A stretch of 64,000 bases of DNA from positions 8,928-72,927 of the forward strand of contig JAVVTJ010000001.1 in assembly GCA_036653755.1 (NCBI GenBank), read 5' to 3'. This document shows, in pieces, positions 455 to 49,133 of the stretch. The DNA is from Clostridia bacterium. Lineage in GTDB: Bacteria > Bacillota > Clostridia > TANB77 > CAG-465. Position numbers and translations under genes: made by a program. Within the stretch, counting starts at the first letter, position 1; each line of letters starts with the position of its first letter. The notes under the pieces were generated by a model. That model was not told the DNA's origin. It was given only the letters and a program-made list of their open reading frames with translations, and did not search any database.

Positions 455-478
455 TTTTTTAAAAAGCTAGCCCTAAGG
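455..478. repeat. GCTAGCCC-box copy (ttttttaaaaagctagccctaagg)
   Basis: Single copy 12 nt upstream of lepA start. Its partner pair lies just after the lepA stop. Confidence 0.7.
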
Positions 479-489
479 AAGGAACTTTA

Positions 490-2295
490 ATGGATAAACA
501 ACAATATATAAGAAATTTTAGTATTATAGCACATATTGATCATGGTAAATCTACTTTGGCAGATAGATTACTTCAAATGACAGGTAGTATTGATATAAGA
601 AAAATGCAAGAACAATTATTAGATAATATGGATATAGAAAGAGAACGTGGAATTACTATAAAATCTCAAGCTGTTAGAATGAAATATAAAGCAAAAGATG
701 GAAATGAATATATTTTAAATTTAATAGATACACCTGGACATGTAGATTTTAATTATGAAGTGTCTAGATCTCTTGCTGCGTGTGAAGGTGCAATACTTGT
801 AGTGGATGCAGCACAAGGAGTTGAAGCACAAACATTAGCTAATGTATATTTAGCATTAGAAAATAATTTAGAAGTATTTCCTGTTATAAATAAAATAGAT
901 CTTCCAAGTGCAAGACCACTTGAAGTAAAGAAAGAAATTGAAGATATTATAGGATTAGAAGCAATGAATGCTCCTGAAATATCTGCAAAAACAGGGATTA
1001 ATGTTGAATCTGTGTTAGAGCTTATAGTAAATAATGTTCCTGCTCCAAAAGGAGATATAAGTAAACCTACATCAGCTCTTATATTTGATTGTGTTTATGA
1101 TAACTACAAAGGAGCACTAGCATATGTTAGAATATTTGATGGCACTTTAAAAAAAGGTGATACAATAATAACTATGTCAAATAAAGTAGAATATGAAATA
1201 GTAGAAGTTGGATATTTTAAACCCGGAAACTATATTGAATGTGATATGTTATCTGCAGGAGATGTGGGTTATATAAGTGCAAGTATACGTTCTGTTTCAG
1301 ATATACATGTAGGAGATACAATAACACATAAAAAAAATCCTTGTCTTATTCAATTAAAAGGATATAAAAAAGTACAATCTATGGTATACTCTGGAATATA
1401 TCCAGCAGATGGTAGTGATTATGAGGATTTAAAAGAAGCACTTGGAAAGCTTAAATTAAATGATGCTTCACTTAATTTTGAACTTGAATCATCAGCTGCA
1501 TTAGGTCATGGATTTAGATGTGGATTTTTAGGACTTTTACATATGGAAATAATTGAAGAAAGACTAGAAAGAGAATACGACTTAAATATAATTACAACTG
1601 CTCCTTCTGTTATATATAAAGTTCATAAAACAAATGGAGAAATTCTAGAATTATATAATCCATCTGAACTTCCAAATCCTCAAATTATAGATTATATGGA
1701 AGAACCAATTGCTAAAACAAATATAATTGTGCCAAAAGAATATGTTGGAAATGTTATGGATTTAGCTACTGAGCGCAGAGGTGAATTTATAAATATGAAA
1801 TATATTGATGCAAATAGAGTAGATTTAGAATATTATTTACCTTTAAATGAGATTATATATGACTTTTTTAATAGTTTAAAGTCTAGAACAAAAGGTTATG
1901 CTTCATTTGATTATGAAATAGAAAAATATGCTAAGGCACAACTTTCTAAATTAGATATAATGTTAAATGGTGAATTAGTAGATGCTTTGTCTTTTATAGT
2001 TCATAAAACAAAAGCAGAAAGTAGAGGACGTAAAATAGCAGAAAAATTAAAAGATATTATTCCAAGACAAATGTTTGAAATACCAATTCAAGCAAGTATT
2101 GGAGGAAAAGTAGTAGCAAGAGAAACAGTAAAAGCAATGAGAAAAGATGTTTTAGCTAAATGTTATGGTGGAGATATTACAAGAAAGAAAAAATTACTAG
2201 AAAAACAAAAAGAAGGTAAAAAAAGAATGAGACAAATAGGAAATGTTCAGCTTCCACAAGATGCATTTATGAGTGTGCTTAAAATAGATGATTAA
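490..2295 (+). CDS. lepA: Elongation factor 4 (LepA), translational GTPase
   Basis: 601-aa ORF. N-terminus [22 protein letters not shown] and DTPGHVDF G-motifs. Conserved LepA C-terminal domain. Confidence 0.95.
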
Positions 2296-2357
2296 TTCCT
2301 TAGGGCTAGCTTTTTAAAAACTGCAGATGCAGTTTTTAAAAAGCTAGCCCTAAGGAA
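2296..2357. repeat. Perfect 62-bp palindrome of two inverted GCTAGCCC boxes
   Basis: ttccttagggctagctttttaaaaactgca / tgcagtttttaaaaagctagccctaaggaa, starting at the base after the lepA TAA. Confidence 0.8.
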
Positions 2358-2374
2358 AAGAGAAGGAGAATAAT

Positions 2375-3121
2375 ATGGGATTAGTATATGGTATAAATCC
2401 AGTAACTGAGGCAATTGTATCTGGTAAGACAATAAATAAAATATATGCACAAAAAGGTAGTAGTGAAGTTCATGATGTAGTTATGCTCGCTAAAGATAAA
2501 AAAATTGTTACTGTTGACGCAGACAAATTTAAATTAGATAGAATGGTTACAGTAGAAGGTGAAAAACTTGTAAATTCACAAGGAATAGTAGCATCTGTTA
2601 CTGATTATCAGTATTGTGAAATAGATGATATTTTAGATGTAGCAACTAAAAAAAATGAAGTACCTTTTGTTATAATATTAGATAAGATTGAAGATCCACA
2701 TAATTTAGGTGCAATACTTCGTAGTATAGATTGTTTAGGTTTTCATGGATGTATAATACAAAAAAGAAATAGCTGCCAAATAACTGATACAGTAGAAAAA
2801 GTTGCAGCAGGAGCTTGTAGTTATGTAAAAGTAGCTCGAGTTACAAATATAACCGAAAGTATAAAATATCTAAAAGAAAAAGGTTTATGGATTTATGGTT
2901 TAGATATGGAAGGTGCATCAGATATATATGCTACTTCCCTTTCAGGAGCTTTAGGATTAGTAATAGGTAATGAAGGTGATGGAATATCAAGACTTGTTAA
3001 AGAAAATTGTGATGCAATGATTAAAATACCGATGACTGGAAATATAAATTCACTAAATGCATCAGTTTCTGCTGCAATTAGTATGTATGAAGTAGCAAGA
3101 CAAAAAAATATGAAAAAATAG
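2375..3121 (+). CDS. TrmH-family (SpoU) RNA 2'-O-methyltransferase, RlmB-like
   Basis: 248 aa with SpoU signatures (DPHNLGAILRS; VIGNEGDGIS; IPMTGNINSLNASVSAAI). Confidence 0.8.
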   Translation: MGLVYGINPVTEAIVSGKTINKIYAQKGSSEVHDVVMLAKDKKIVTVDADKFKLDRMVTVEGEKLVNSQGIVASVTDYQYCEIDDILDVATKKNEVPFVIILDKIEDPHNLGAILRSIDCLGFHGCIIQKRNSCQITDTVEKVAAGACSYVKVARVTNITESIKYLKEKGLWIYGLDMEGASDIYATSLSGALGLVIGNEGDGISRLVKENCDAMIKIPMTGNINSLNASVSAAISMYEVARQKNMKK

Positions 3122-3132
3122 GAGAGATATAA

Positions 3133-5081: not shown

Positions 5082-5094
5082 AATATATAAAAAA

Positions 5095-5123
5095 ATATCA
5101 GCAAATTTTTGCTGATATTTTTT
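5095..5123. terminator. Bidirectional rho-independent terminator
   Basis: Hairpin atatcagcaaa-ttttt-gctgatat followed by T-run. Sits between convergent genes. Confidence 0.6.
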
Positions 5124-5141
5124 TAAAAAGCTAGCCCTAAA
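5121..5141. repeat. GCTAGCCC-box copy
   Basis: ttttaaaaagctagccctaaa, between the terminator hairpin and the stop of the convergent hydrolase gene. Confidence 0.7.
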
Positions 5142-5147
5142 AGATTA

Positions 5148-5903
5148 TTATTTTTTAAAAATGTGATCTTTAATTATAGCAGTAGTTGTAAGCGTGTTAA
5201 ACCATTGCTTATTACATTTGTCACTTATATTTGGATTGTAAAAGTATAGTGCCCCATTAGAGTAGTCTTTTCCTTTAAGTGCAATTTTAACGGCTTTGTA
5301 TGTTGTATTAGAAATTATAGCATTTTTTATAGTTCCATTACTAACTGGCTGAAATTGTCCTGGTGAGTAAACTACATCAATAGCGTTATCTGGAAAGTCA
5401 TTACTTTTAATTCTGTTTAAAATTGTTGATGCTACAGCAGCTTTACCTTTAATTGGCTGATCACCAGCTTCTTTTTCAGTTATAGCAAGTAATACTTCAA
5501 TGTCATCAATTTTTGTATTAATTGATTTTTTAATTATGATAGCAGCTTCATCTTTGGCAGATTTTTTTATTTTTTTTGCTATTTTTTCTGCATTTTTAAC
5601 TTTACTATATAATTGTTGATTTGCTTTTTTATTAGCCTCATGTAAAATTATTTTTGCTTTTTCTTCAGTAGAAAAAATTATGTTGTCAGCTTTCTCTTGA
5701 GCAGAAAAAATTATATTGTCTGCTTCCTCTTGAGCAGACAATACTATGTTATTAGCTTTCTCTATTTGAATTAATTTATTACTTATATAAATTAAACCCA
5801 AAAGCGAGATTACTAATAGAATAGATACTATAGTTCTTCTTTTAATAACCATTACTTTTCTTTGTTCCCGGAATTTATTAATATTCAGTGTTTTTAATAA
5901 CAT
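5148..5903 (-). CDS. Cell-wall hydrolase, SleB/CwlJ (Hydrolase_2) family, N-terminal membrane anchor plus triplicated helical repeat
   Basis: C-terminal domain ...AAVASTILNRIKSNDFPDNAIDVVYSPGQFQPV...GALYFYNP matches the SleB/CwlJ catalytic domain. N-terminal TM (IVSILLVISLLGLIY). Three tandem ~33-bp DNA repeats at 5672-5770 encode NIVLSAQEEAD/NIIFSAQEKAD/NIIFSTEEKAK. AAAGGAG RBS before ATG 5903. In-frame CGG at 5870-5868. Confidence 0.7.
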   Translation of the reverse strand: MLLKTLNINKFREQRKVMVIKRRTIVSILLVISLLGLIYISNKLIQIEKANNIVLSAQEEADNIIFSAQEKADNIIFSTEEKAKIILHEANKKANQQLYSKVKNAEKIAKKIKKSAKDEAAIIIKKSINTKIDDIEVLLAITEKEAGDQPIKGKAAVASTILNRIKSNDFPDNAIDVVYSPGQFQPVSNGTIKNAIISNTTYKAVKIALKGKDYSNGALYFYNPNISDKCNKQWFNTLTTTAIIKDHIFKK

Positions 5904-9897: not shown

Positions 9898-10737
9898 ATG
9901 ATAATAGATGTAAAAACAATAGTTAAAAATAAAAAAGAAGAATTAATAAAAAAAATAGATAAATTAAAAGAAAATAATATAGTTCCAAAACTTGTATTAA
10001 TATGTGCAAGTGATGATAAAGCATCTGAAATATATGTAAGTAAAAAAAGAAATATGTGCAAAGAAGTAGGCATTGAAGAAGAAGAGTTTTTATTTGATAC
10101 ATTAGTTACAACTGATAAAATAATAGGTGTTATAAAAAAGTTAAATGATGATATTTCAGTAGATGGAATATTAGTACAACTTCCATTATATAAACATTTA
10201 GATGAAAATAAAATTTTAAATAGCATTTCACCATGTAAAGATGTAGATGGACTTCATCCTTTAAATCTTGGTAGGTTATTTGCAAACGAATCTGGAATTG
10301 TATCTTGTACGCCAAAAGGAATTATGACTGTATTAGATGATTTAAATATTCATATTGCTGGAAGTAATGTTGTAGTTATAGGTAGAAGTATTTTAGTAGG
10401 AAAACCAATAGCAGCGTTATTATTAAATAGAAATGCTACTGTTACAATATGTCATTCTAAAACTGAAAATTTAAAATTATTTACATTGAATGCAGATATT
10501 TTAATAGTAGCTGTTGGAAAGCCTAAGATAATTACTGATGATATGGTAAAAGAAGGTTCGATTGTAATTGATGTTGGAATAAATAGAACAGAAAATGGAA
10601 AAATAATTGGAGATGTAGATACTGAAAATGTAAATAAAGTGGCTAAATTTACAACACCAGTGCCAGGTGGTATTGGACTTACTACTGTTTTGTCATTACT
10701 TGAAAATGTAGTTAAAGTTTCAGAAAATAGATCATAG
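9898..10737 (+). CDS. folD: Bifunctional methylenetetrahydrofolate dehydrogenase/cyclohydrolase
   Basis: Typical FolD length (279 aa), motifs VVVIGRSILVGKPIAALL, PVPGGIG. Stop TAG lies inside a repeat box. Confidence 0.9.
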   Translation: MIIDVKTIVKNKKEELIKKIDKLKENNIVPKLVLICASDDKASEIYVSKKRNMCKEVGIEEEEFLFDTLVTTDKIIGVIKKLNDDISVDGILVQLPLYKHLDENKILNSISPCKDVDGLHPLNLGRLFANESGIVSCTPKGIMTVLDDLNIHIAGSNVVVIGRSILVGKPIAALLLNRNATVTICHSKTENLKLFTLNADILIVAVGKPKIITDDMVKEGSIVIDVGINRTENGKIIGDVDTENVNKVAKFTTPVPGGIGLTTVLSLLENVVKVSENRS

Positions 10738-10754
10738 GGCTAGCTTTTTAAAAT
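10734..10754. repeat. GCTAGCCC-box copy overlapping the folD stop codon
   Basis: atagggctagctttttaaaat. The TAG of folD (10735-10737) is the first TAG of the box. Confidence 0.7.
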
Positions 10755-10964
10755 TTGTAACAAAGCAATTTAAGTAAAATATTTATACTGATTTTTGTTA
10801 TTAAATTATAATAAATAAATAATTTATAGCATATATTAATTAGTAGTGACTATATTATTTGCATAAAATAAATACAAATGCAATTAACTTTTTTACACAA
10901 GTTAGATTTAGAATCATTAGAAAATTAAAAATTTCAATTATTTTAACTTTTTTAGTATTTTCTA

Positions 10965-11012: not shown

Positions 11013-11086
<74 letters not shown>

Positions 11087-13665: not shown

Positions 13666-14349
13666 ATGAGTAAAAGAATGAAAGAAATAGCTAAAATCGT
13701 AGAACCAGGAAAAGTATATGATATAAATGAAGCTATTGAATTGATGCTTAAAATGCCTAAAGTTAAATTTGATGAAACAGTAGAAATGCATGTTAAATTA
13801 GGTGTTGATGGTAAACAAGCTGATCAACAAGTTAGAGGAGTAGTAGTACTTCCTAATGGTACTGGTAAAACTAAAAAAGTATTAGTTTTAGCTAAAGGTG
13901 AAAAAGCAGAAGCAGCAAAAGAAGCAGGTGCTGATTTTGTTGGAGATGATGATATGATTAAAAAAATACAAACTGAAAATTGGTTTGGATTTGATACAAT
14001 TATAGCAACACCTGATATGATGCCTGCACTTGGAAGAGTAGCAAAATTATTAGGACCTAAAGGTTTAATGCCTAATCCTAAATCTGGAACAGTTACTTTA
14101 GACGTAGCAAAAGCAGTACTTGAAACTAAAGCTGGTAAAATTGAATATAGATTGGATAAAAACAATATAATTCATTGTCCAATTGGAAAAATATCTTTCG
14201 GTGCTGACAAAATAAAAGAAAATTATATGACTTTATTAGAAACTATAATAAAAGCAAAACCTGCTGTTGCAAAAGGAACATATTTACAATCTGTTGCTAT
14301 TGCATCAACAATGGGTGCTGGACTAAAAATAAATTCATCATCTAAATAA
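13666..14349 (+). CDS. rplA: 50S ribosomal protein L1
   Basis: 227 aa, canonical L1 sequence. Gene order L11-L1. Confidence 0.95.
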
Positions 14350-14359
14350 GTAAAAATAA

Positions 14360-14480
14360 TAAGCCAAAGACAGTAGGTGATTAAATTCATAAATCCTACC
14401 GAGGTGTTTAGATTTAAAATCGTATTTTAAATTCTGCAAAACATCTCGCTTTGCAGAATTTTAATTTTGGAGGAGGCGAA
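14360..14480 (+). promoter_or_regulatory. Ribosomal protein L10 leader (autoregulatory RNA structure)
   Basis: Structured GC-richer intergenic segment between rplA and rplJ with hairpin gcaaaacatctcgctttgcagaa, in the conserved position of the Firmicutes L10 leader. Confidence 0.4.
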
Positions 14481-17391: not shown

Positions 17392-17440
17392 AAAAGTTCA
17401 CCTCTTATATAGACTATGTACCGCACATTAAAATATTCTA

Positions 17441-17498
17441 CATTAGGGCTAGCTTTTTAAAAAAGTGTACACACTTTTTTAAAAAGCTAGCCCTAATG
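17441..17498. repeat. Perfect 58-bp palindrome of two inverted GCTAGCCC boxes (left boundary of tnpB element)
   Basis: cattagggctagctttttaaaaaagtgtac / gtacacttttttaaaaagctagccctaatg. Confidence 0.8.
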
Positions 17499-17780
17499 TA
17501 GTGCATCGACAAAACTAGACAGTAATTGTATAGTACTTTTAATTGATATATGATTGAGTAAGTAATATAATATATATGTCCGGGGGCACCGGAGTTTGCA
17601 TGCTAAATTAGCACTAGATTATGTGCTGTACGCATGAACCTTAATTGGATGTCACAAAGCTAGCCCACTAGGCCACTACGGAATTTTTAGTTCTGTAAGT
17701 TTAATGCACGTTAAGTTGCACAATAAATATATAATAATGAAAGTCCATTTTAATTTTATAGTAAAAGGAGAACGTTTTTT

Positions 17781-38527: not shown

Positions 38528-39307
38528 ATGAAAGAATTTTTTACAGAAACAGGTGGCATAGGTTTTAATATATTTGGTATTTTACATATATCAATTACAA
38601 TTGTTACAATTATTGGAGCTATTATGTTATTTGTATTTAGAGATAAATTAAAGAGATTTAAAAACAAAAAAAATATTAGATATATTATGGCTGCAGTACT
38701 TTTTATAAATATGGCAGTATATTATATATCACTTATACTCAGAAATGACTATACTTGGAAAACAGATTTACCACTACATTTTTGTTTTATAACGGGATAT
38801 TTATTTATGTTTATACTTATAACAGGAAATAAAAAATTATATAAAATAATATACTTTTTTACTTTTGTAGGACCGATACCTGCAATATTACTTCCTGATT
38901 TAACACAGACATATGATAGATTTATATTTTGGCAGTTTATAATAAGCCATCATGTAATGTTACTTACAAGTATGTATGTATTAGTAGTATTAGAATATAA
39001 AGTTGAAAAAAGTGATATATTTAAAGCATTTATTGCTGGTAATATATTGGCTGCTACTATGGCAATATTTAATTCAATATGTGGAACAAATTATATAATG
39101 ATGGGAGAGCTTCCAGAACATATATATAGAATATTTCCATTTACAGCATATTTACCACCAATAATATGGCTTGAACTTGCTGGACTTATAGCAGTAAGCA
39201 TTGCATATATTCCAGTATATATTTTAAATAGAATTAGTGGCAAATTTGATGAATTAGAAGCTACTGATGTCACATTGTTAGATGATGAAATAAATTGTGC
39301 GCATTAG
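38528..39307 (+). CDS. Multi-pass integral membrane protein (YwaF-like), function unknown
   Basis: 259 aa with about 7 predicted TM segments. Stop TAG lies inside a repeat box. Confidence 0.5.
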   Translation: MKEFFTETGGIGFNIFGILHISITIVTIIGAIMLFVFRDKLKRFKNKKNIRYIMAAVLFINMAVYYISLILRNDYTWKTDLPLHFCFITGYLFMFILITGNKKLYKIIYFFTFVGPIPAILLPDLTQTYDRFIFWQFIISHHVMLLTSMYVLVVLEYKVEKSDIFKAFIAGNILAATMAIFNSICGTNYIMMGELPEHIYRIFPFTAYLPPIIWLELAGLIAVSIAYIPVYILNRISGKFDELEATDVTLLDDEINCAH

Positions 39308-39840
39308 GGTTAGCTTTGTAAAATCTGTATGGGTTAAATGCCCATACAGATTTTTTGCTACGCAAAGGCGTGATAAACGTAATACTTAAAATATAAATTT
39401 TAAGAGAAGTAATATAACTTTTTTTAAAATTTGATTAAAATTTTAAAATTGGGCATAATAAACGTAAGTATAAAATATAAATTTTAAGTAAAATAATATA
39501 GCTTCTTTTAATGCTTTTTAAAAGAAACGGGTAAATTATTTAAAATTGAAAATTTGATGTATAAACTACATCCGGATCAAAATACAAGTATTTATATACT
39601 TGAAACCCTGTGGGTTAGCTTTGTGGCAAATTGATTCATGCGTACGGCGTAAGGTGCTATTTTAGCATGCTAATTCCAGTACCCCTGGACATTGATATTA
39701 TACTACTTATATTGTTAATATTCAATATGTAGCTTAAAAAACTCATCGACAAATATCGCTAGAAATGCTTATAGTTTACGTATGAAAATTTATAGCGGCA
39801 TTTAGCCACTATAAATTTTACAAAGCTAACCCGAAAATAT
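39301..39840 (-). mobile_element. tnpB-less derivative (MITE-like) of the IS200/IS605-type element, bounded by inverted GTTAGC-variant boxes
   Basis: Inverted boxes at 39303-39324 and 39816-39838. The reverse complement of 39590-39700 aligns with the IS left-end-like segment 17575-17680 (gtccaggggtactggaattagcatgctaaaatagcac... / gtccgggggcaccggagtttgcatgctaaattagcac..., both then ...cacaaagcta[ga]cccac). Internal 48-bp direct repeats at 39371-39418 and 39453-39501. Hairpin plus T-run at 39324-39357. Confidence 0.55.
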
Positions 39841-39868
39841 TGACAAACACTTGTTTAAATGGTATAAT
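39840..39868 (+). promoter_or_regulatory. Sigma-A-type promoter for uvrA
   Basis: TTGACA (39840-39845), 17-bp spacer, TATAAT (39863-39868). Confidence 0.55.
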
Positions 39869-39907
39869 TATTCGTATTAAAAACATGCTATATTTATGGA
39901 GGATAAT

Positions 39908-42742
39908 ATGTTAGATAAAATAGTTATAAAAGGTGCTAAAGAACATAATTTAAAAAATATAAGTTTAGAAATTCCAAGAGATAAATTAATTGTATTTACT
40001 GGTTTGTCTGGTAGTGGTAAAACATCTCTTGCTTTTGATACAATATATGCAGAAGGTCAAAGAAGATATGTAGAGTCTTTGTCTGCTTATGCAAGGCAAT
40101 TTTTAGGTATAATGGAAAAACCAGATGTTGAATATATAGAAGGTTTATCTCCTGCTATTTCAATTGATCAAAAAACTACATCTAAAAATCCACGTTCTAC
40201 GGTTGGAACTATTACAGAAATATATGACTATTTGCGCTTGTTATATGCAAGAGTTGGTATTCCTTATTGTCCTATATGTGGCAAAAAAATACGTAAACAA
40301 ACAGTTGATGAAATAGTTGAACAAATTATGGAATTTCCTATTGGCAAGAAGTTATTTATAATGGCTCCTGTAATTCGTGGCAAAAAAGGAGAACATACTA
40401 AATTATTAGAAACAGCTATTAAAGATGGTTTTGTAAGAGCAAGAGTAGATGGTGAAATAATTGATTTAGCGGAAGAACTACCTAAAATAGAGAAAAATGA
40501 TAAACATAATATTGAAATAATAGTAGATAGATTAGTTGTGGGAGAAGGCATTAGGCAAAGACTTACAGAATCTGTTGAACTTGCACTATCACAGGCAAAT
40601 AATTTAGTTATGATATCTACACCAGAGCGTGAAGATTATATATTTAGTCAAAATTATGCATGTCCTGATTGTGGAATTAGTATTGATGAATTAAATCCAA
40701 GAATGTTTTCTTTTAATAGTCCATTTGGTGCATGTCCTGATTGTACTGGTTTAGGAGAATTATTAAAAATAGACATAGAAAAGATTATGCCAAATAAAGA
40801 AAAAAAATTAAACGATTATGGTGCAATTCAAGGCTGGTCGGGTGGTGGTAGTATTATTGATACTATTAGTGGTATGTATATTAAAGGATTGTGTGAGCAT
40901 TATAAAATAAAACCTACTACTAAACTTAAAGATCTTCCAGAAGATTTTATGCAAATTTTGTTATATGGCAGTAAAGGTGAAAAAATTAAATTTCAGCATA
41001 TTACAAAAACATTAGTAAGAGATTTTGAAGCTGAATTTGAAGGTGTTGTAAATACTCTTGAAAGAAGATTTACTCAAACTTCTTCGCAAGGTATGAAAAC
41101 ATATTATGAACAGTTTATGTCAACAACTTTGTGCCCTACATGTAAAGGAGCAAGGTTAAAAAAAGAAATGTTATCAGTCAAAATAGGAACATTAAATATA
41201 CATGAATTATGTAATAAAAATATTTTAGCTATAAAAGATTATGTAAATGATATATATGAAAATAAAATGAGTGAAAAAAATAAAATGATAGCAGAGCAAA
41301 TTGTTAAAGAATTAAATAGTAGGTTACAATTTTTAATAGATGTAGGTCTTAATTATTTAACATTATCTAGAAGTTCTGGAACTTTAAGTGGAGGAGAAGC
41401 TCAGCGTATAAGACTTGCAACTCAAATAGGTTCAGGGCTTACAGGAGTTTTATATATATTAGATGAGCCAAGTATTGGACTTCATCAAAAAGATAATGCA
41501 AAACTTCTAGCTTCACTTAAAAAAATGAGAGATTTAGGTAATACTTTAATAGTAGTAGAACATGACGAAGATACTATGAATGAATCAGATTATATAGTAG
41601 ATATAGGTCCTGGCGCTGGCGTTCATGGTGGAAATGTTGTATTTGCAGGTACAGTAGAAGATATGAAAAAAGACGAAAATTCTTTAACTGGTAAATATTT
41701 AAGTGGCAGAATTAAAATTGAAGTTCCTAAAAAAAGAAGAAAAATAGAAAATGGATATATTGAAATAAAAGGTGCTAGAGAGCATAACTTAAAAAATATA
41801 AACGTTAAATTTCCAGTAGGTGTATTTACATGTGTAACAGGAGTATCTGGAAGTGGTAAATCTACTTTGGTAAATGAAATATTATCTAAGGCAATTTCAA
41901 AAGAGTTAAATGGAGCAAGAGCAAAACCTGGACTTCATACTAAAATAACTGGAATGGAAAAAATAGATAAAATTATAAATATAGATCAATCTCCAATAGG
42001 TAGAACTCCTCGTTCTAATCCTGCAACATATACGGGAATGTTTGACCCAATACGTGATTTATTTGCAGCAACAGCAGATAGTAAAATGAGAGGATATTCA
42101 AAAGGAAGATTTAGTTTTAATATTCCTGGTGGTAGATGTGAAGCTTGTAATGGTGATGGAATAATAAAAATAGAAATGCATTTTTTACCTGATGTATATA
42201 TTCCTTGTGAAGTTTGCAGAGGTCATAGATATTCAAAAGAAACATTAGAAGTTAAATATAAAGGAAAAAACATAAGTGAAATTTTAGATATGACTATTGA
42301 AGAAGCATTAGAGTTTTTTAAAAATATTCCTACAATAAAAAATAAAGTACAAACTTTATTTGATGTAGGTTTAGGGTATATAAAACTTGGTCAACCTTCG
42401 ACAACTTTAAGTGGAGGAGAAGCTCAGCGTATAAAACTTGCAACTGAATTATCTAAAAGAGCAACAGGTAAAACGTTATATATACTAGATGAACCAACAA
42501 CAGGACTTCATATGGCAGATGTACATAATTTAATTCATATTATAAATAGATTAACAGATAGTGGTAATACCGTTATTATAATAGAACATAATTTAGATAT
42601 AATAAAGTCTGCTGATTATATAATTGATTTAGGTCCAGATGGTGGAGATATGGGTGGAAGTTTAGTAGTCTCAGGTACGCCAGAGATAGTAGCAAAATGT
42701 AAAGAAAGTTATACAGGAGAGTTTTTGAAAAAATTGCTTTAG
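39908..42742 (+). CDS. uvrA: Excinuclease ABC subunit A
   Basis: Two ABC ATPase modules ([27 protein letters not shown]), two LSGGEAQRI signatures, zinc fingers. Start at ATG 39908 ([18 protein letters not shown]). The track start 39896 is an alternative. Stop TAG inside a repeat box. Confidence 0.9.
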
Positions 42743-42760
42743 GGTTAGCTTTGTAAAAAA
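42739..42760. repeat. GTTAGC-variant box overlapping the uvrA stop codon
   Basis: tttagggttagctttgtaaaaa. The uvrA TAG (42740-42742) is inside the box. Confidence 0.7.
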
Positions 42761-42762
42761 AG

Positions 42763-42793
42763 AAAAGCCAAAATTTTGGCTTTTCTTTTTTTT
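42763..42793 (+). terminator. Rho-independent terminator after uvrA
   Basis: aaaagccaaaattttggctttt hairpin followed by T-run. Confidence 0.7.
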
Positions 42794-42794
42794 A

Positions 42795-43370
42795 TCCTCG
42801 TCTTTTCTTAGTTTTTAGATCATATCTTAAAACATAAGCAAAGAAGTTTTCATTGTTTAAATCTTTGTAGTGTTCAAGTAAATCTGTAAAAAACTTAATT
42901 TGTTCATTTAAATCAGCAACATAGTTTTCAATATTAAAATTTTTATTTAAAAAACTTACGCCATTTTTTTCATGTTTAACATTCTAGATTCAGATTTAAG
43001 AGGTGTTATTTTACATTTTGCTGTGAGCTTTTTGTAAGTTTTAAATTCATATGTAAATATAACACATCTTTAGTTTTTGTATCAAATTCATTTGTAACAA
43101 TTAATTCAATAAAAGTTCTAATTTCAGCAATGGATTGATATATTTCTTCGTTTGTAATAAGCGAAGAATAGTGCTGAATAATTGACATAATAGCATATGG
43201 TATGCCTTTGCCAGTGTCATAAATTGCTTATATAACTTCTGGCATTTTACAACAGATTGTTTCAATTCGGCGATTATTTTTTTCTTTTTTTCTTCCTCAC
43301 TACTTTTATTTTCTGTAGAATAATTAAAAAGAATTTCTACTTATGCCAAATTTAGCATAAATTTCCCTCC
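42795..43370 (-). pseudogene. Fragmented small ORFs (degraded gene remnant)
   Basis: Reverse strand carries a GGAGGG-ATG start (43366) that stops after 5 codons. Overlapping partial frames follow (…IIAELKQSVVKCQKLYKQFMTLAKAYHM / MSIIQHYSSLITNEEIYQSIAEIRTFIELIVTNEF… / …NFNIENYVADLNEQIKFFTDLLEHYKDLNNENFFAYVLRYDLKTKKRRG*), with a frame change inside an a7 run. Confidence 0.3.
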
Positions 43371-43529
43371 AAAAATATTGCATTTTGTAAAAAGTATAAA
43401 CTAACTACATATATTATACTTGCCAAATTTATGCTATTATACTAGTAAATCGACTATATTTTAATAATTAATCTTGCAAGAGTAATAGATATATGTTATA
43501 ATATTAATATTGATATGGAGGTAAAAGTA

Positions 43530-44537
43530 TTGATTGAAGATAGAGTTATATCAGCAGATATTGAAGAAGATGATGAAAAACAGTTAGAAGTTTCACTTAG
43601 ACCTCGTAATTTTGATGAATATATAGGGCAAGAAAAAGTAAAAGAAAATTTAAAAGTATATATAGATGCTGCAAAAGCTAGAAATGAACCATTAGATCAT
43701 ACATTGTTATATGGACCTCCTGGACTTGGAAAAACAACTCTTGCTAGTATTATAGCTTCAGAGATGGGTGTTAATATAAAAGTTACGTCAGGACCTGCAA
43801 TATCAAAATCAGGGGATTTAGCTGCAATACTTACAAATCTGCAAGAAAATGATTTGCTTTTTATAGATGAAATACATAGATTAAATAAAACAATAGAAGA
43901 AGTGCTATATCCTGCACTTGAAGATTATAGTTTAGACATAATGATAGGAAAAGGACCTTCTGCTCGTAGTATAAGATTAGATTTACCTAAATTTACATTA
44001 GTTGGAGCTACAACAAAAGCTGGAAGTTTATCTTCTCCACTACGTGATAGATTTGGTATAATACATAGACTAGAGTTATATACAACAAATGAACTTGCAA
44101 GTATTATAAATAGAAGTGCTAGTATATTAAATATGCAAATAAGTAAAGAGGCAGCTTTAGAAATTGGTTCTAGATGTAGAGGAACACCTAGAATTGCAAA
44201 TAGATTATTAAAAAGAGTTAGAGATTATGCACAAGTTCAAGGTAGCACTGTTATAGATTATAACATAACTAAAAGTTCATTAGATAGATTAGAAATAGAT
44301 GAACTTGGATTAGATCAAATAGATAGAGAAATGCTTCGCACTATAATAACAAAATTTAGTGGTGGACCAGTTGGAATAGAAACATTAGCTGCTGCTGTTG
44401 GTGAAGATAAAGATACAATTGAAGATGTATATGAACCATATTTAATGCAAATAGGATATTTAGCAAGAACGCCAAGAGGAAGAATAGCTACAAATTTAGC
44501 ATATGAACATTTAGGATTGGAGATAAAAAATGTGTAA
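43530..44537 (+). CDS. ruvB: Holliday junction branch migration ATPase RuvB
   Basis: [16 protein letters not shown], Walker [12 protein letters not shown], Walker [10 protein letters not shown], sensor/RuvB C-domain. TTG 43530 after GGAGGT preferred over the RBS-less ATG 43515. Confidence 0.9.
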
Positions 44538-45093
44538 GTTATTAGTGCATACATGTTGTGCACCTTGTTTTGTATATATACATGAAGATTTAGTAAATTT
44601 AAGAGAAGTATTTAATAAAGATATTAATTTAGATATAACAAGTTTATGGTATAATCCTAATATTCAACCTAAGTTTGAATATGAAAGAAGAAAACAAACT
44701 TTAATTGATTATTGCAGAAATGTTAATTGTAAACTTGATATTATTGAAGAATATAATTTAAAAAACTTTGTAGAAAATAGTATAAATTTAGATGGTTATT
44801 CTTGTAGATGTGAATATTGTTATACTAAAAGATTAGAAAAAACATTTAAATATGCTAAAGAAAATAATTTTGATATGGTTATGACAACTTTAAGTATAAG
44901 TCCATACCAAAATCAAGATTTAATTAAAAAAGTAGGATTTAATTTAGAAAAAAAATATGGTATAAAGTATATTCATTTAGACTATACAAAAAAATTTAGA
45001 GAAGGACAAAATATGGCCAGAGAACTTGGATTATATAGACAAAAATATTGTGGTTGTGTTTTTTCAATAGACGAAGGAAAGTGGGAATATTAA
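44530..45093 (+). CDS. queH: Epoxyqueuosine reductase QueH (DUF208)
   Basis: N-terminal [11 protein letters not shown] and later CxxC (CRCEYC) cysteine clusters. Length 187 aa. Confidence 0.7.
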
Positions 45094-45096
45094 AAT

Positions 45097-45984
45097 ATGA
45101 ATGGTAAATATTCAAAATCAAAATTAATCGGTAGAAAATGGTTTGTTTTTTTTATAACAATTCTTGCTATGTTACTCATATTAAGTATAGCATTTATTGT
45201 ATATATACATGTTAAGAATGTTATAACCTATGAAAAAATAAATAGTAGTAGCTTAGTTACTGATAATATTGCTGCATCATCGACGCCAATTGTTGTAAAT
45301 AATATAATTGTAGGTGCAGTATATGACAAAAAATGGGTTAGTACAGAAAGATATTTTTTCAAAAGTACTAATAAAGAAAAATTTGATGTTGATGTTTTTA
45401 ATAAAGATGGAAAAGCAGGAAGCTTTAAATTAAATGAAATTCAAAAAAATAATGAGCAAGCTACTGCATATACTAGTACAACAAGAATAAATCATGTTGA
45501 TGAATATTATGCTATAAAGACGGGAAGTAGTTTTGTAAAAATGAGTTTATTAGAATTAAATAATGAGACTAATAATAAATATATAAACTATGTTAAAGAG
45601 GCATTAGGTATGTATAATATGTTAAATGGAACTGTTAAAATAAAAGAAATATATGAGACATATTTAACGCCAGGAAAAGTATCTTATGTTATAACAGCTA
45701 CTAATAATTCTAACTCAAATGGAGGTGTATATAGCGCAGTAATATTTGTAGATAATGATGATAAAGTGTCACTAGTAAAGTACAATTTTTTAAAAGATGT
45801 AAATAATTCATCGGATTTTAATATTTATTCTGTTAAATTTATTGCAGATTTAAATGATGATGGTGTATCTGAGATAATACTTCAAGAAACAAAAGAATTT
45901 GATACTAAATATTCAATTATGGAATATAACAAAGGTAAGTTTTATGAAGTTTTATCTGCAAAATTAAGTAATAAAATAATTTAG
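45097..45984 (+). CDS. Hypothetical membrane-anchored protein
   Basis: 295 aa, single N-terminal TM (WFVFFITILAMLLILSIAFIVYI), Asn/Ser-rich extracytoplasmic part. No recognisable domain. Confidence 0.45.
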   Translation: MNGKYSKSKLIGRKWFVFFITILAMLLILSIAFIVYIHVKNVITYEKINSSSLVTDNIAASSTPIVVNNIIVGAVYDKKWVSTERYFFKSTNKEKFDVDVFNKDGKAGSFKLNEIQKNNEQATAYTSTTRINHVDEYYAIKTGSSFVKMSLLELNNETNNKYINYVKEALGMYNMLNGTVKIKEIYETYLTPGKVSYVITATNNSNSNGGVYSAVIFVDNDDKVSLVKYNFLKDVNNSSDFNIYSVKFIADLNDDGVSEIILQETKEFDTKYSIMEYNKGKFYEVLSAKLSNKII

Positions 45985-45997
45985 GAGGAAAATAATT

Positions 45998-47788
45998 ATG
46001 GTAAAATATATAAATAATAAAGGAGAAATATATGAAGCAGAATATGACTTGCAAATTGCAAGACATACATCTTCACATATATTAGCACAAGCAATAAAAA
46101 GAATTTATGGAAGTGATATAAAACTTGCAATAGGACCTGCTATTGATAATGGTTTTTATTATGATTTTGACGGATTAAATGTAAAACAAGAAGATTTAGA
46201 AAATATAGAAAATGAAATGAAAAAAATTGTTAAAGAAAATCAAAAAACTTCTTGCTATACTTTAAATAAAAAAGAGGCAATTAAGCTTGTTACTGAAATG
46301 GATGAAATATACAAAAAAGAAATGATTGAAGAAATGAAAGAAGATGAAATAATTTCTTTCTTTGCACAAGGAGATTTTACTGATATGTGCACAGGACCAC
46401 ATATGTTATATTTAAAATCTGTTGGTCATTTTAAATTATTTACTGCAACTGGTGCTTATTGGAGAGGCAATGAAAAAAATAAAATGCTTACAAGAATTTA
46501 TGGTACTTGTTTTGAAAAAAAAGAAGAGTTAGAAAGTGAAATCTTAAAAAAAGAAGAAGCAAAAGATAAAGATCACAATAAATTAGGAAGAGAAATGGAG
46601 CTTTTTACAACAGTAGATATGATAGGTCAAGGACTTCCAATATTACTTCCAAAAGGAGCTACAATAGTACAAACACTTCAAAGATTTGTTGAAGATGAAG
46701 AAAGAAAACGTGGATATTTACTTACTAAAACTCCTTTTATGGCAAAATCTGATTTATATAAAGTATCAGGTCATTGGGATCATTATAAAGAGGGTATGTT
46801 TATACTTGGAGATGAAGCAAAAGATAAAGAAGTATTTGCACTTCGTCCTATGACATGTCCATTTCAATTTATGGCATATAAAAATAGACAAAGAAGTTAT
46901 AGAGATTTACCACTTAGATATAATGAAACTTCTACATTATTTAGAAATGAAGATTCAGGAGAAATGCATGGATTAATTAGAGTTCGTCAGTTTACAATAT
47001 CTGAGGGACATCTTGCTGTAAGATTAGATCAATTAGAAAAAGAAATAGCAGGAGTACTTGATTTAATTAATTATTTTATGGATGTACTTGGTCTTAAAGA
47101 AGATATTTCATTTAGATTTTCTAAATGGGATCCAAATGATAGAGCTAAATACTTAGGAAATGAAGAAGATTGGGAATATTCACAAAGTGTACTTAAATCA
47201 ATATTAGATGATTTAAAAATAAATTATGTTGAGGCTATAGGAGAAGCAGCTTTTTATGGTCCGAAATTAGATATTCAAGCTAAAAATGTATATGGAAAAG
47301 AAGATACTATAATAACTGTACAAGTAGATTTTCAATTAGCACATAGATTTGAAATGACATATATTGATAAAGATGGAAGTAAAAAATATCCAGTAGTTAT
47401 ACATAGAACTTCAATTGGTTGTTATGAAAGAACACTTGCAATGCTTATTGAAAAATATGCAGGAACATTTCCATTATGGCTTGTACCAATTCAAGCTAAA
47501 ATATTAACAATTTCTGAAAATGAAATAGAATATGCAGAAGAAGTTAAAAATAAACTATTACAAGCAGATTTTAAAGTAGAATTAGATAGTGAAGATAATA
47601 AAATTGGATATAAAATACGTGAAGCACAACTTGAGAAAGTTCCATATATGATTGTAATAGGTAAAAATGAAGTAGAAAATAATACTATTACAATTAGAAA
47701 TAGAAATGGTGAAGATATTAAAGATATAACAGTTGATGAGTTTATTAATATGTTAAATAGTCAAGTTAAAAAAGAATTGCTTAAATAA
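45998..47788 (+). CDS. thrS: Threonyl-tRNA synthetase lacking the N-terminal TGS domain
   Basis: 596 aa. Begins directly in the N2 editing domain (HTSSHILAQA), class II motifs, DKDHNKLGREMELF. No leader region (AGGAGG RBS 8 nt after previous stop). Confidence 0.85.
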   Translation: MVKYINNKGEIYEAEYDLQIARHTSSHILAQAIKRIYGSDIKLAIGPAIDNGFYYDFDGLNVKQEDLENIENEMKKIVKENQKTSCYTLNKKEAIKLVTEMDEIYKKEMIEEMKEDEIISFFAQGDFTDMCTGPHMLYLKSVGHFKLFTATGAYWRGNEKNKMLTRIYGTCFEKKEELESEILKKEEAKDKDHNKLGREMELFTTVDMIGQGLPILLPKGATIVQTLQRFVEDEERKRGYLLTKTPFMAKSDLYKVSGHWDHYKEGMFILGDEAKDKEVFALRPMTCPFQFMAYKNRQRSYRDLPLRYNETSTLFRNEDSGEMHGLIRVRQFTISEGHLAVRLDQLEKEIAGVLDLINYFMDVLGLKEDISFRFSKWDPNDRAKYLGNEEDWEYSQSVLKSILDDLKINYVEAIGEAAFYGPKLDIQAKNVYGKEDTIITVQVDFQLAHRFEMTYIDKDGSKKYPVVIHRTSIGCYERTLAMLIEKYAGTFPLWLVPIQAKILTISENEIEYAEEVKNKLLQADFKVELDSEDNKIGYKIREAQLEKVPYMIVIGKNEVENNTITIRNRNGEDIKDITVDEFINMLNSQVKKELLK

Positions 47789-47795
47789 ACTTAAA

Positions 47796-47826
47796 ATAAC
47801 GTTTGATTTTATTCAAACGTTATTTT
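47796..47826. terminator. Bidirectional terminator between thrS and the vanW-like gene
   Basis: aataacgtttga/tcaaacgttatt inverted repeat with T-rich flanks. Confidence 0.55.
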
Positions 47827-48534
47827 ATTAAATTTAATAGTAACATTTGATTTATCATTTGTTGCTATTATTTTTATATCATTTTCAGTTGTATTTTTAA
47901 ACTTTAAATCTAAGGTATTATAATATATAGTTGCATCTTTATCTTTTGGCACATAATATACACGTTTGCTATGAGGATGTCTTTCAATTATTTCTAAATT
48001 AGAAATTAAAGCAGTATTATATATAGTACTACTTATTTGGCACATACCACCACCAAATACTTTAATAACTTTTCCATTAGTATCAAAGCCTGTTGCTTCT
48101 TTATATCCTTGCTTTTCACCCATAGGACCTACAGTTTCATTAAATGAAAAAGTTTCTCCTTTTTTTACTACTTTTTCATTTATTTTTTTAATTGCTAAAC
48201 CTATGTTATATACTCTATTTTCATCTTTGTCATAAATATTTGAAGAAAAAATAGCTATTTCAGTTTCTTTTTCTTTAATTATAGGTTTTTCATTATTTGT
48301 AGCATTATTGCCATTATTTGTAGTATTATTTTCTGGAATATTAGGAACAGTATTTTGTATATTACTTTTATTACTAGATAAACTATTACTAGAAGAATAT
48401 ATAGTATAAAAAGTTATAACTAATATAGTAATTAAAATTAATACAAAAATAACTACAACTATTGATTCTGATTTATTTTTCATTTTTAGGTCTCCTTTTG
48501 ATATAGTTTTCCCTGAATTTTTAAAAATAATCAA
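47809..48534 (-). CDS. VanW-like protein
   Basis: N-terminal TM, C-terminal VanW domain (GGGMCQISSTIYNTALISNLEIIERHPHS). Confidence 0.7.
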   Translation of the reverse strand: MIIFKNSGKTISKGDLKMKNKSESIVVVIFVLILITILVITFYTIYSSSNSLSSNKSNIQNTVPNIPENNTTNNGNNATNNEKPIIKEKETEIAIFSSNIYDKDENRVYNIGLAIKKINEKVVKKGETFSFNETVGPMGEKQGYKEATGFDTNGKVIKVFGGGMCQISSTIYNTALISNLEIIERHPHSKRVYYVPKDKDATIYYNTLDLKFKNTTENDIKIIATNDKSNVTIKFNKITFE

Positions 48535-48609
48535 AAAACGAAAAAATTAGTAATATAAAAAATATTTTTTTACTTTACATATTAAGTTATACATGGTATA
48601 ATATAATAG

Positions 48610-48948
48610 TAAGTATTACATATAGTCGCGCATAGTAATATGTGAGGAAAGTCCGGGCTCCATAGAGCATATGATGCTAGATAACGTCTAGTGGGAGTGA
48701 TCCTAAGGAAAGTGCAACAGAAAATAACCGCTTTATTTATTTAAAGTAAGGGTGAAAAAGTGAGGTAAGAGCTCACTAAACTTTATGGTGACATATTGTT
48801 TTTGTGTAAACCCCATTTGGAGCAACACCATAAAATAAAGAATAAGACAATGCTCGTCGTCTTTAACGTTTGGTGGCTAGAGATATATAGTGATATATAT
48901 TCGAGATAAATGACTATTTAATACAGAACCCGGCTTACGAAATACTTA
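48610..48948 (+). ncRNA. rnpB: RNase P RNA (bacterial type B)
   Basis: GAGGAAAGTCCGGGCTCCATAG... universal P4 region, ...AGAACCCGGCTTACGAAATACTT 3' end pairing with 5' aagtatt (P1). Tggtataat extended -10 about 30 nt upstream. Confidence 0.85.
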
Positions 48949-48950
48949 TA

Positions 48951-48989
48951 ACAAGTTTTTATACTTTTGTATAGAAACTTGTTTTTTTG
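48951..48989 (+). terminator. Rho-independent terminator after rnpB
   Basis: acaagtttttatac/gtatagaaacttgt stem followed by T7. Confidence 0.7.
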
Positions 48990-49107
48990 TGTGATTAAAA
49001 AGTTATAATTATATTTTGTCGAAATTTGTATATCAATTATTGTTTAAAAAACTTGACTTTAAAACAAATGTTTAGTATAATTATTTTACTTAAAACAATA
49101 GTTAAAT

Positions 49108-49133
49108 ATTTTTACAAAGCTAACCCTAAAACT
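49108..49133. repeat. GTTAGC-variant box copy
   Basis: tttttacaaagctaaccctaaaac, in the intergenic region between rnpB and the 49215 ORF. Confidence 0.65.

Follow-up and report, generated by a model that had tools for sequence, protein, structure and literature searches.

The window analysed here is a stretch of 64,000 nucleotides (nt) from an uncultured member of the Clostridia (contig JAVVTJ010000001.1 of assembly GCA_036653755.1), whose genome is low in GC (~25%); the window is 99.98% identical to contig 1 of GCA_036650815.1, a Clostridia genome assembled from a metagenome. It carries a tnpB gene, two copies of a small structured RNA gene, one directly upstream of tnpB (17543-17700, plus strand) and one without tnpB (39725-39577, minus strand), and a family of 20-nt boxes dispersed along gene boundaries. 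An 11-nt sequence connects the RNA to the boxes, since it forms the core of the box and also the first 11 nt past the scaffold of the RNA, where a guide would begin. This match between the boxes and what appears to be a relocated omega-RNA with a fixed guide, beside a nuclease-competent and non-mobile TnpB, is the main finding of this analysis and is undescribed as far as we searched; in the literature we met neither an omega-RNA upstream of tnpB nor TnpB guides that match dispersed repeats. The RNA and tnpB features of the window are the following.

17543-17571, plus strand: promoter of RNA-A, sigma-70-type (TTGATA, 17-nt spacer, TATAAT), kept in all homologous loci
17578-17655, plus strand: scaffold of RNA-A, omega-RNA-like, with helices P1, P2 and P3, ending in GUCAC
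17656-17675, plus strand: guide-position segment of RNA-A, AAAGCTAGCCCACTAGGCCA, whose first 11 nt (17656-17666) equal the box core and are preceded by GTCAC, not TTTTA
17781-18956, plus strand: tnpB, 391 aa, with RuvC residues D202/E286/D368 and zinc ribbon intact
39304-39835: RNA-B unit of 532 bp, an orphan RNA-B without tnpB between 51-nt inverted arms (39304-39354 and 39785-39835), each a box plus a hairpin
39577-39725, minus strand: RNA-B gene, with promoter 39725-39697, scaffold 39690-39623, guide-position segment 39622-39603 and terminator hairpin 39602-39577
39622-39612, minus strand: 11-mer of RNA-B, AAAGCTAACCC

Each RNA copy consists of a sigma-70-type promoter (TTGATA or TTGAAT, 17-nt spacer, TATAAT), the helices P1/P2/P3 and a terminator-like hairpin. 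Further loci were fetched via TnpB homologues that are 46-59% identical, and the same unit of promoter, RNA (~120 nt) and terminator lies directly upstream of tnpB at all seven TnpB-linked loci, which come from six genomes, with the orphan as one additional copy. We refer to the two window copies as loci A and B, to L024 and L051 (from the window's genome) as C, to L026 as D, to L027-L032 as E, to L033 as F, to L039-L048 as G and to L055 as H. In an alignment of six of the RNA sequences, the structure gives standard pairs in 88% of cells, a share that drops to 17-50% if it is shifted by 1-3 columns, and 8 of the 15 pairs show compensatory changes; P1 was taken from a manual structure, RNAalifold on the raw MAFFT alignment giving P2 and P3 only, and single-sequence folding of the region was uninformative (z-scores -0.6 and -0.4). 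A covariance model built from this alignment matches only these copies in 230 kb, with two in the window and none in L009, L034, L036 or L037. Between the scaffold end (...CAC) and the terminator there are ~20 nt, of which the first 11, AAAGCUAGCCC, are the best-conserved part of the whole RNA. The tnpB gene can be reached only by read-through of the terminator of the RNA, an arrangement that would keep the RNA in excess over the protein.

The affinity of this RNA was judged against two canonical relatives whose proteins are 41-42% identical, one an element on a Cetobacterium plasmid and the other an IS605 of Paenibacillus larvae. In both, a GC-rich structured region past the tnpB stop ends in ...GGTAGTTCAC, and because the two sequences diverge from there on, we read this region as the right end plus the omega-RNA. 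The covariance model did not reach these canonical omega-RNAs with default filters; with the filters off, its best match at each canonical locus (8 kb searched) lies directly past the tnpB stop on the sense strand, with E = 0.027 and 0.068. The scaffold ends in ...GUUCAC followed by flanking sequence in the canonical elements and in ...G(U/C)CAC followed by the 11-mer here, and locus E and the Cetobacterium element have in common a hairpin followed by GUAGAGC. The TnpB-linked RNA thus appears to resemble, weakly, the 5' part of a canonical omega-RNA. Other identities were rejected: an IStron or group I intron, there being no Rfam match, the upstream RNA being too short and the elements not lying within genes; an IS110 bridge RNA, the protein family being wrong; and CIRCE, whose sequence is different.

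A motif resembling a Spo0A box stands just upstream of the -35 element of the RNA promoter (window 17500-17515 and 39744-39753; L033:9770-9800; L028:9790-9805; L055:9770-9800) in the forms TGTCGAA, TTGCGATCGA and CATCGACAAA, and at L055 (11165-11200) a similar TGTCGAATTTTGTCGAATTTTGCGATCGA also precedes the promoter of the gene after tnpB; the RNA/tnpB module may share a regulator, possibly one tied to sporulation. Within the RNA-B unit there are two direct repeats of ~48 nt (39373-39420 and 39456-39503; ATAAACGTAA..AAATATAAATTTTAAG..TAATATA), and the hairpins beside its two boxes (39324-39354 and 39785-39815) have different stems with compensatory changes (CTGTATGGG/CCCATACAG against TTATAGTGG/CCGCTATAA) around a conserved loop, (T/C)TAAATG. 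The Logan assemblies L022-L025 and L041-L048 break 195-470 nt upstream of tnpB, in or beside the RNA or a box pair, which fits repeat-induced assembly breaks and would make box counts from short-read assemblies underestimates.

The TnpB protein has the full domain set in Pfam (HTH_OrfB_IS605, OrfB_IS605 and Cas12f1-like_TNB), and D202, E286 and D368, which are invariant in 11 homologues, align with the residues that we take to be the catalytic ones of ISDra2 TnpB. The genes themselves have not been recently mobile and occupy fixed, syntenic, single-copy loci: P0001 is at a single locus in four assemblies, P0007 at a single locus in six, and P0027 at a single locus in all ten places among the matches listed (58 index blocks). 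P0002 and P0003, which are 64% identical, lie upstream of the same PP2C-phosphatase/PASTA-kinase/rsgA/rpe operon in two species, while P0001 and P0025 (49% identical) both stand ahead of a coiled-coil gene of unknown function and fba, the Fba proteins being 79% identical. The copies are old paralogues (58% identical) at fixed loci, and in the samples read neither the RNA nor the tnpB units occur as near-identical copies at several sites. The canonical relatives have TnpA hairpins of the CCTCTATTAG type at both ends, whereas the tnpB units here have none, and the ends of 39304-39835 are inverted repeats rather than IS605-type left and right ends with subterminal hairpins. The guide-position segment is inside the unit and is followed by a terminator, so that the putative guide is not derived from flanking DNA, and at L028 the promoter of the next gene begins ~30 nt past the tnpB stop, leaving no room for a 3' omega-RNA. 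An earlier note on this DNA had treated tnpB as part of an insertion sequence (IS) and placed the copy at 17653 inside its left end; the locus does not behave as a recently mobile element, and that copy lies instead at the guide position of the omega-RNA-related structured RNA. Boxes usually bracket the tnpB units, as the same note saw in the window, although L028 shows that they are not obligatory flanks. No Y1 transposase gene was found in the ~79 kb of the window's genome that was read (window, L009 and L051).

The boxes of the window, with the two core-only copies in the RNA genes, are arranged as follows.

457-476, minus strand: box, reading TTTTAAAAAGCTAGCCCTAA on the plus strand, in the lepA 5' untranslated region (5'UTR), 29 nt past the -10 element and 13 nt ahead of the ATG
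2296-2357: perfect 62-nt palindrome between lepA and the SpoU-type methylase gene, with box 2300-2319 (plus), a unique centre and box 2334-2353 (minus)
5121-5140, minus strand: box 7 nt past the stop of the minus-strand gene 5148-5903, then an AT-rich hairpin and a T-run
10734-10753, plus strand: box, ATAGGG variant, whose TAG is the folD stop codon
17438-17501: perfect 64-nt palindrome upstream of the RNA-A promoter, with box 17443-17462 (plus), a unique centre and box 17477-17496 (minus)
17656-17666, minus strand, and 39612-39622, plus strand: core-only copies, in RNA-A and RNA-B
18978-19018: pair, 42 nt past the tnpB stop, whose right box (18999-19018, minus, TTTTAT type) is intact and whose left arm (18978-18995) has decayed
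24781-24800, minus strand: box of the TTTTAT type, preceded by a hairpin, 20 nt ahead of the hydA ATG
26575-26594, plus strand: box whose TAG is the hydA stop codon
26718-26737, minus strand: box 28 nt ahead of gene 26766, forming a wide inverted pair with box 26575, 123 nt apart
39304-39323, plus strand: box that provides the stop codon of gene 38528-39307 (YwaF-like in the earlier note)
39816-39835, minus strand: box just upstream of the uvrA promoter
42739-42758, plus strand: box of the GGGTTAGC subfamily, whose TAG is the uvrA stop codon, with a hairpin and T-run after it
49110-49129, minus strand: box of the GGGTTAGC subfamily, 29 nt past the -10 of promoter 49053-49081 and 85 nt ahead of gene 49215

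The dispersed family of at least 14 copies described in the earlier note is borne out, and its coordinates are correct within 0-6 nt, except that the pair at 26575 and 26718, real as such, is spaced by 123 nt and not 119. With at most 3 mismatches, the 20-mer TTAGGGCTAGCTTTTTAAAA matches 15 places in the window against 0.06 expected, a number that none of 100 shuffles reaches, and the subfamily consensus TTAGGGTTAGCTTTGTAAAA selects the same 15 places. The core GGGYTAGCTTT has 17 copies, the 15 full boxes and the 2 core-only ones, all outside open reading frames (ORFs) in a window that is 87.6% coding (P ~ 4e-16). That all copies are intergenic, as was claimed, therefore holds for the window and fails on contig 30 of the same genome, where rpe contains a complete in-frame box. 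At least one box is present in 11 of the 34 window intergenic regions of 30 nt or more, and in the sequence available the density is about 1 per 3-4 kb. Three subtypes are spatially segregated, C7/T15 at 457-26737, T3/A15 at 18999 and 24781, and T7/G15 at 39304-49129, the last being the second subfamily of the earlier note, which is real. Neither the box nor the RNA has an Rfam match at gathering thresholds, and relaxed thresholds give only spurious microRNA-hairpin matches, on the palindrome. The box pattern TTAGGGYTAGCTTTKTAAAA, which would miss the box variants of loci E, F, G and H, has 8 single matches in unrelated taxa in a collection of species-representative genomes and no multi-copy carrier there, 10 unrelated matches in JGI metagenomes with no contig holding more than a chance copy, and no match in IMG/VR. 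These results indicate that the box family is lineage-specific, undescribed and new, in agreement with the earlier judgement that it could not be assigned to a described repeat.

To describe the anatomy of the box we counted 47 boxes from six genomes. On its other strand the box reads TTTTA (47/47), a single base (A, C or T, in no case G) and an 11-mer that is identical to the first 11 nt past the scaffold of the local RNA. At position 12 the box has T in 39 of 47 cases where the RNA has A, and matches to the 20-nt guide-position segments always run for 11-12 nt from the scaffold-proximal end and then stop; a search for full-length targets of these segments had no match other than the genes of the RNA. 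The RNA genes' own copies of the 11-mer are preceded by CAC or CGC, not by TTTTA, and the conserved flanks of the box, TTTTAH on one side and mostly TAA/TAG/TGA on the other, are absent from the RNA, so that the boxes are not simple copies of the RNA gene. By its sequence the box has the geometry of a TnpB target, with a putative target-adjacent motif (TAM) 5' of a guide-identical sequence that starts at the first guide base.

The RNA and the boxes also change together, as the following types illustrate.

Loci A, C, D and E: RNA ..GCUAGC.., boxes GGGCTAGCTTT
Locus B (orphan, window): RNA ..GCUAAC.., the four surrounding boxes (39304, 39816, 42739 and 49110) being GGGTTAGCTTT
Loci F and H: RNA ..GUUAGC.., boxes GGGCTAACTTT
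Locus G: RNA AAAACCAACCC (ACCAAC), boxes TTTTTAT+AAAACCAACCC and TTTTTAT+AAAACTAACCC

Changes in the 11-mer of the RNA are thus mirrored in the boxes in at least three independent sets, with TTTTA constant throughout, and in the window two box types stand alongside two RNA types within a single genome.

The two palindromic pairs form perfect hairpins, as the earlier note had it. Pair 2296-2357 (62 nt) has the arrangement 30+2+30 nt, with outer flanks TTCC/GGAA and centre ACTGCA..TGCAGT, and pair 17438-17501 (64 nt) has 31+2+31 nt, with outer flanks CTACA/TGTAG and centre AAGTGT..ACACTT, so that both palindromes extend past the 20-nt box into sequence specific to the pair. No direct repeats, and hence no target-site duplication, were seen at the pair edges, and centres and palindromic flanks differ between the pairs, which argues that the pairs are not copies of one mobile unit; the terminal inverted repeats, target-site duplication and common interior that together define a miniature inverted-repeat transposable element (MITE) are not found in them. 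Inverted duplication, or the correction of a quasi-palindrome by template switching, would account for perfect palindromes with unique flanks and centres more readily than would two separate insertions. In pairs with one decayed arm, it is the arm on the gene side that is still perfect (window 18978-19018; L051:367/411 and 3339; L026:3210 and 4991; L033:11241).

At gene ends, the TAG of the box serves as the stop codon of four genes with a 4-nt overlap (folD, hydA, YwaF-like and uvrA in the naming of the earlier note). Of the five such fusions proposed before, only that of lepA does not stand, its TAA lying 4 nt ahead of the box, and one further gene (5148-5903) stops 7 nt ahead. Forward fusions, always in the TAG frame, are also found in a P-type cation ATPase gene at L026, a Peptidase_A25 (gpr-type) gene at L028, three genes at L033 and dsbD at L051. 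By a table of gaps, at least 13 of the 15 window boxes have their GGG/CCC end toward the nearer gene and their TTTTA end toward the intergenic interior (own binomial estimate ~0.004). A palindrome or hairpin lies directly on the TTTTA side in ~12 of the 15, where TTTTA often doubles as the U-tract, and three window boxes and the rpe box have no adjacent hairpin. We rejected the box as a general terminator component, because several boxes are hairpin-free and most of the predicted window terminators have no box (11092, 29595, 33220, 34803, 47792 and 48950), exactly one overlapping a box. A promoter-like module, TATAA[A/T]TATTTTACTTAAA, lies on the TTTTA side of two boxes (10768-10805, minus strand, and 49058-49095, plus strand), and the one at 10768 would drive antisense transcription toward folD; as a repeat family, the promoter-like sequence TATAATTATTTTACTTAAAA is not significant (4 matches against 1.0 expected).

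A comparison of relatives, as suggested earlier for the presence or absence of copies, does reveal differences. The box in the lepA 5'UTR and the pair downstream of lepA are perfect in the window, decayed in L034 (LepA 92% identical) and absent in L036 and L037 (89% and 88%); in L036 the lepA TAA is directly followed by the GGAGAA ribosome-binding site of the next gene, and compared with L036 the downstream pair is an insertion of 69 nt. On contig 30 of the window's genome, 3 of the 6 box sites are common with the orthologous region of genome D and 3 are absent from it. Ahead of the PP2C-phosphatase and rsgA genes, D has the same boxes over 18-20 nt, whereas the centres of the adjacent hairpins are fully changed. 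Inside rpe, the gene for ribulose-phosphate 3-epimerase, both species have the complete in-frame box TTTTACAAAGCTAGCCCTAA (L051:4435-4461 and L026:9001-9027); at 27 nt it is the longest stretch of the gene kept without any change, while the rpe proteins share 61% identity. It brings no length change, DLIKLAKK of homologues being replaced by NFTKLAL(R/K) in the two species, with NFTKLALR as the form in the window's genome. Lacking an adjacent hairpin, the rpe box cannot be a terminator, and its conservation argues that the whole 17-20-nt motif including TTTTA is maintained as a motif in itself. Conservation of position between species had been set out as evidence against mobility, and the outcome is divided: several boxes are conserved across species and others have been gained, lost or decayed, so that both selection on a DNA motif and turnover are seen in the boxes.

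We tentatively favour, with somewhat less than even confidence, the reading that the boxes are targets made of a TAM and an 11-nt seed, bound without cutting by a complex of TnpB and the RNA. They would then be the chromosomal recognition sites of a domesticated, non-mobile TnpB system. The RNA would be a relocated omega-RNA with a scaffold of 70-90 nt, a guide-position segment of ~20 nt and an intrinsic terminator, and it would load into TnpB with the 11-mer as guide, TTTTAH (H = A, C or T) serving as the TAM. Because the match ends at 11-12 nt and the nuclease residues are intact, we infer binding without cleavage, in which a nuclease-competent complex opens only a short R-loop. Once bound, the complex would form a polar roadblock or insulator that stops transcription on its way out of the intergenic region, or it would modulate the gene immediately downstream, and a box in a 5'UTR or within rpe would attenuate the gene that it precedes or lies in. 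Knowledge of Cas9 and Cas12 roadblocks suggests that RNA polymerase is stopped when it meets the side of the protospacer-adjacent motif (PAM) or TAM first, and with the orientation observed here it is transcription toward the flanking genes that would be blocked. There are precedents for such short matches: guides of 9-11 nt are used by TldR proteins (PMC10705468), and active FnCas9 guided by the small CRISPR/Cas-associated RNA (scaRNA) represses where the match is partial and covers 11 bp (PMC12231574). More doubtful, and in our view possible rather than probable, is the wider proposal that a nuclease-competent TnpB has been turned into a genome-wide RNA-guided DNA-binding system in a clade of ~25%-GC uncultured Clostridia, with an upstream omega-RNA under its own promoter and terminator, a hard-wired guide and co-evolving sites at gene boundaries, possibly hundreds per genome, addressed by the first 11 nt of the guide with TTTTAH as the TAM. 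In that case the complex might also maintain the box sites by conversion, and this would be the first RNA-guided "global" system of chromosomal site recognition.

Several points weigh against this interpretation. The ends and the role of the RNA, its loading, the TAM and the binding were all read from sequence; an upstream position of the omega-RNA is undescribed, the canonical position being downstream of tnpB (PMC10691335), and the resemblance to omega-RNA is weak (E ~0.03-0.07). The aligned CCAC of the canonical relatives runs on into GAAGCCCC, with which the right-end hairpin begins, so that the 11-mer could be left over from that hairpin rather than be a guide, and its 3' part can pair into a mini-hairpin within the RNA. 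The use of TTTTA as a U-tract in ~12 of the 15 window boxes is a second possible cause of its invariance. At positions 3 and 15, which are not part of the 11-mer, the bases that distinguish the subfamilies go together with it and cluster by region, which points to copying by descent, regional conversion or recombinational import that the model leaves unaccounted for, and the tight fusion to stop codons is not something that a TnpB target would predict. In addition, the box-rich loci outside the window flanks were all fetched through tnpB, leaving the density elsewhere poorly sampled, and L034, from the same genome as L026, has decayed boxes only.

Most of the remaining confidence is taken together by three rivals, in which the box is a selfish repeat, an RNA-level or terminator element, or the product of homing and conversion. 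The box may be a selfish repeat like a MITE, a repetitive extragenic palindrome (REP) or its hairpin-forming doublet (REPIN), the inverted pair being mobile via a Y1 transposase (TnpA or a REP-associated tyrosine transposase, RAYT) or another transposase elsewhere; solo boxes would be pairs minus one arm, and the 11-mer would be common to RNA and box by descent from an IS200/IS605 right end or by gene conversion. We consider this unlikely but not negligible. It would account for the hairpin-forming doublets, for decayed partner arms beside boxes that look solo (window 18978; L051:367 and 3339; L026:3255 and 4991; L033:11190), for subfamilies with linked diagnostic bases and regional clustering, for gain and loss of sites such as the lepA-downstream insertion, and for a canonical right end that reads CCAC|GAAGCCCC where the RNA has CCAC|AAAGCUAGCCC. 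It sits poorly with a single box that is not palindromic, with unique pair centres and palindromic flanks that lack a target-site duplication, and with a surviving arm that is non-randomly gene-adjacent; nor would it explain an rpe box that substitutes without length change and is conserved between species, a TTTTA that is in every box and absent from the RNA, or tnpB units that are single-copy and without TnpA-type end hairpins. Distinctly improbable, in our estimate, is that the box works in RNA, as the outer arms of bidirectional intrinsic terminators made of an A-tract/U-tract and a GC clamp (GGGCUAGC paired with GCUAGCCC), with read-through transcripts folding into a 30-bp duplex for RNase III and the TnpB-linked RNA acting as antisense to the stop-codon boxes. 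The ~12 of 15 boxes with a hairpin on the A/T-rich side would be explained, as would the complementarity of forward stop-codon boxes to the RNA segment over 11-13 nt and the hairpin potential kept in orthologous pairs whose centres differ, but most predicted window terminators have no box, four boxes have no hairpin, and a terminator within rpe would harm. Moreover, the boxes that two species have in common, in rpe and ahead of the PP2C-phosphatase and rsgA genes, have the same sense as the RNA and cannot pair with it, and the apparent identity of the RNA as a TnpB cofactor is left unaccounted for.

The third rival is a drive by homing or conversion, in which the TnpB-RNA complex would cut or nick TTTTAH followed by a partial seed, repair with other boxes as template would overwrite near-cognate sequence with a perfect box, and tnpB would spread between boxes through their homology. 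The intact nuclease residues suit this scenario, as do the regional homogeneity of the box sequence and the boxes that usually bracket the tnpB units, and the rpe box resembles a conversion in place, since codons for DLIKLAKK from an AT-rich set would be near the box sequence (as judged from the peptide only). A match of 11-12 nt is, however, probably too short for cutting by TnpB, recombination makes poor use of homology arms of 20-60 bp, the tnpB copies at their fixed loci are old paralogues and not recent products of homing, and hundreds of chromosomal cuts would be costly to the cell, so that we rate it as very unlikely. We give hardly any credence to the box as a site bound by an ordinary DNA-binding protein of the host, for instance a nucleoid or termination factor, with the identity to the RNA reflecting no functional link to TnpB. 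The fixed motif length of 17-20 nt, the position at gene boundaries and the partly palindromic core GCTAGC are what such a protein might require, yet a single reader would not yield several independent matched changes between RNA and box or two types within one genome.

Other features of the window are reported for completeness. The asparagine synthase gene (15603-17391, minus strand) is divided into two overlapping ORFs, GATase at 16762-17391 and Asn_synthase at 15603-16817, with the same split in L021, and this is probably a frameshift, a pseudogene or a recoding site. A GGDEF-EAL gene (26766-28218, plus strand) likewise consists of overlapping ORFs, 26766-27047 (93 aa, partial GGDEF) and 27028-28218, and, just past a box, may contain a frameshift. 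Three tandem 33-nt repeats (73-100% identical) at 5656-5754 lie in the minus-strand gene 5148-5903 (Hydrolase_2, SleB-like). The ordinary features recognised by Rfam, at 14346-14473, 48610-48952, 11013-11083 and 63719-63889, are an L10 leader, a class A RNase P RNA and three tRNAs.

If the favoured interpretation is right, TnpB would have been domesticated without the death of its nuclease, and its omega-RNA would have become a gene in its own right, with a fixed guide. A whole family of sites, and not just one promoter, could then be addressed by an RNA-guided protein in its own genome, which would be a new layer of bacterial genome organisation, and the natural scaffold of 70-90 nt, with a candidate T-rich TAM, would be compact enough to be of use in engineering. 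Should the repeat be selfish instead, the strict co-variation between box and TnpB-linked RNA would still be a new relationship between a repeat and an obligate mobile element-guided activity (OMEGA) system, with a bearing on the co-evolution of guides and targets.

Among known repeats, the closest in layout are REPs, REPINs and bacterial interspersed mosaic elements (BIMEs), which are likewise extragenic, highly repeated, single or in inverted hairpin doublets, and often at the 3' ends of genes; the pairs at 2296-2357 and 17438-17501 are doublets of this kind. The earlier note had drawn this likeness and one to IS200/IS605-derived elements, and what stands of it is the inverted doublets and the link to tnpB, whereas the solo box is not palindromic, there is no target-site duplication and end hairpins are missing. 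A REP unit is itself an imperfect palindrome of ~20-40 nt, and the sole palindrome in a solo box is the 6-nt GCTAGC, without a GTAG-type 5' signature. The boxes differ further in occurring in 5'UTRs, in divergent intergenic regions and once in-frame in a gene, in having no RAYT known in the ~79 kb read, and in a core that co-varies with a TnpB-linked RNA. Palindrome-associated transposable elements (PATEs) from IS1341-type tnpB elements recall the 532-bp unit at 39304-39835, which is likewise an RNA gene without tnpB, but this unit has inverted arms of box plus hairpin rather than IS605-type ends and is single-copy in the available sequence, and the 20-bp boxes are far too short to qualify. 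DNA uptake sequences and uptake signal sequences (DUS/USS) also form inverted pairs at gene ends, which serve as terminators, and differ in being over-represented throughout the genome and also in coding regions, where none of the 17 window copies is found although 88% of the window is coding.

The comparison with RNA-guided systems is closer. With OMEGA (TnpB and omega-RNA of IS200/IS605) the system has in common the TnpB domain set, the RuvC residues D, E and D, the zinc ribbon, a scaffold that ends in ...CAC before the putative guide position and a T-rich candidate TAM 5' of the sequence identical to that putative guide. It differs in that the RNA is upstream of tnpB with its own promoter and terminator, that TnpA and end hairpins are absent and the loci fixed and vertically inherited, that the putative guide is hard-wired and not read from flanking DNA, and that the putative targets are many sites on its own chromosome with a match of 11-12 nt each. 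FnCas9 with its scaRNA (PMC12231574) would be alike in combining an active nuclease with an 11-bp partial match beside a PAM, as is proposed here for TnpB, and is unlike it in having a Cas9 effector, few targets and no repeat family. TldR is a domesticated, non-mobile TnpB relative with a fixed guide for host DNA, as is putatively the case here, and its oppF-associated clade has guides of 9-11 nt and scaffolds of ~100 nt (PMC10705468). Unlike TldR, however, the TnpB described here keeps its catalytic triad and zinc ribbon intact, its RNA is upstream rather than downstream, and it would target a dispersed family of sites rather than one promoter.

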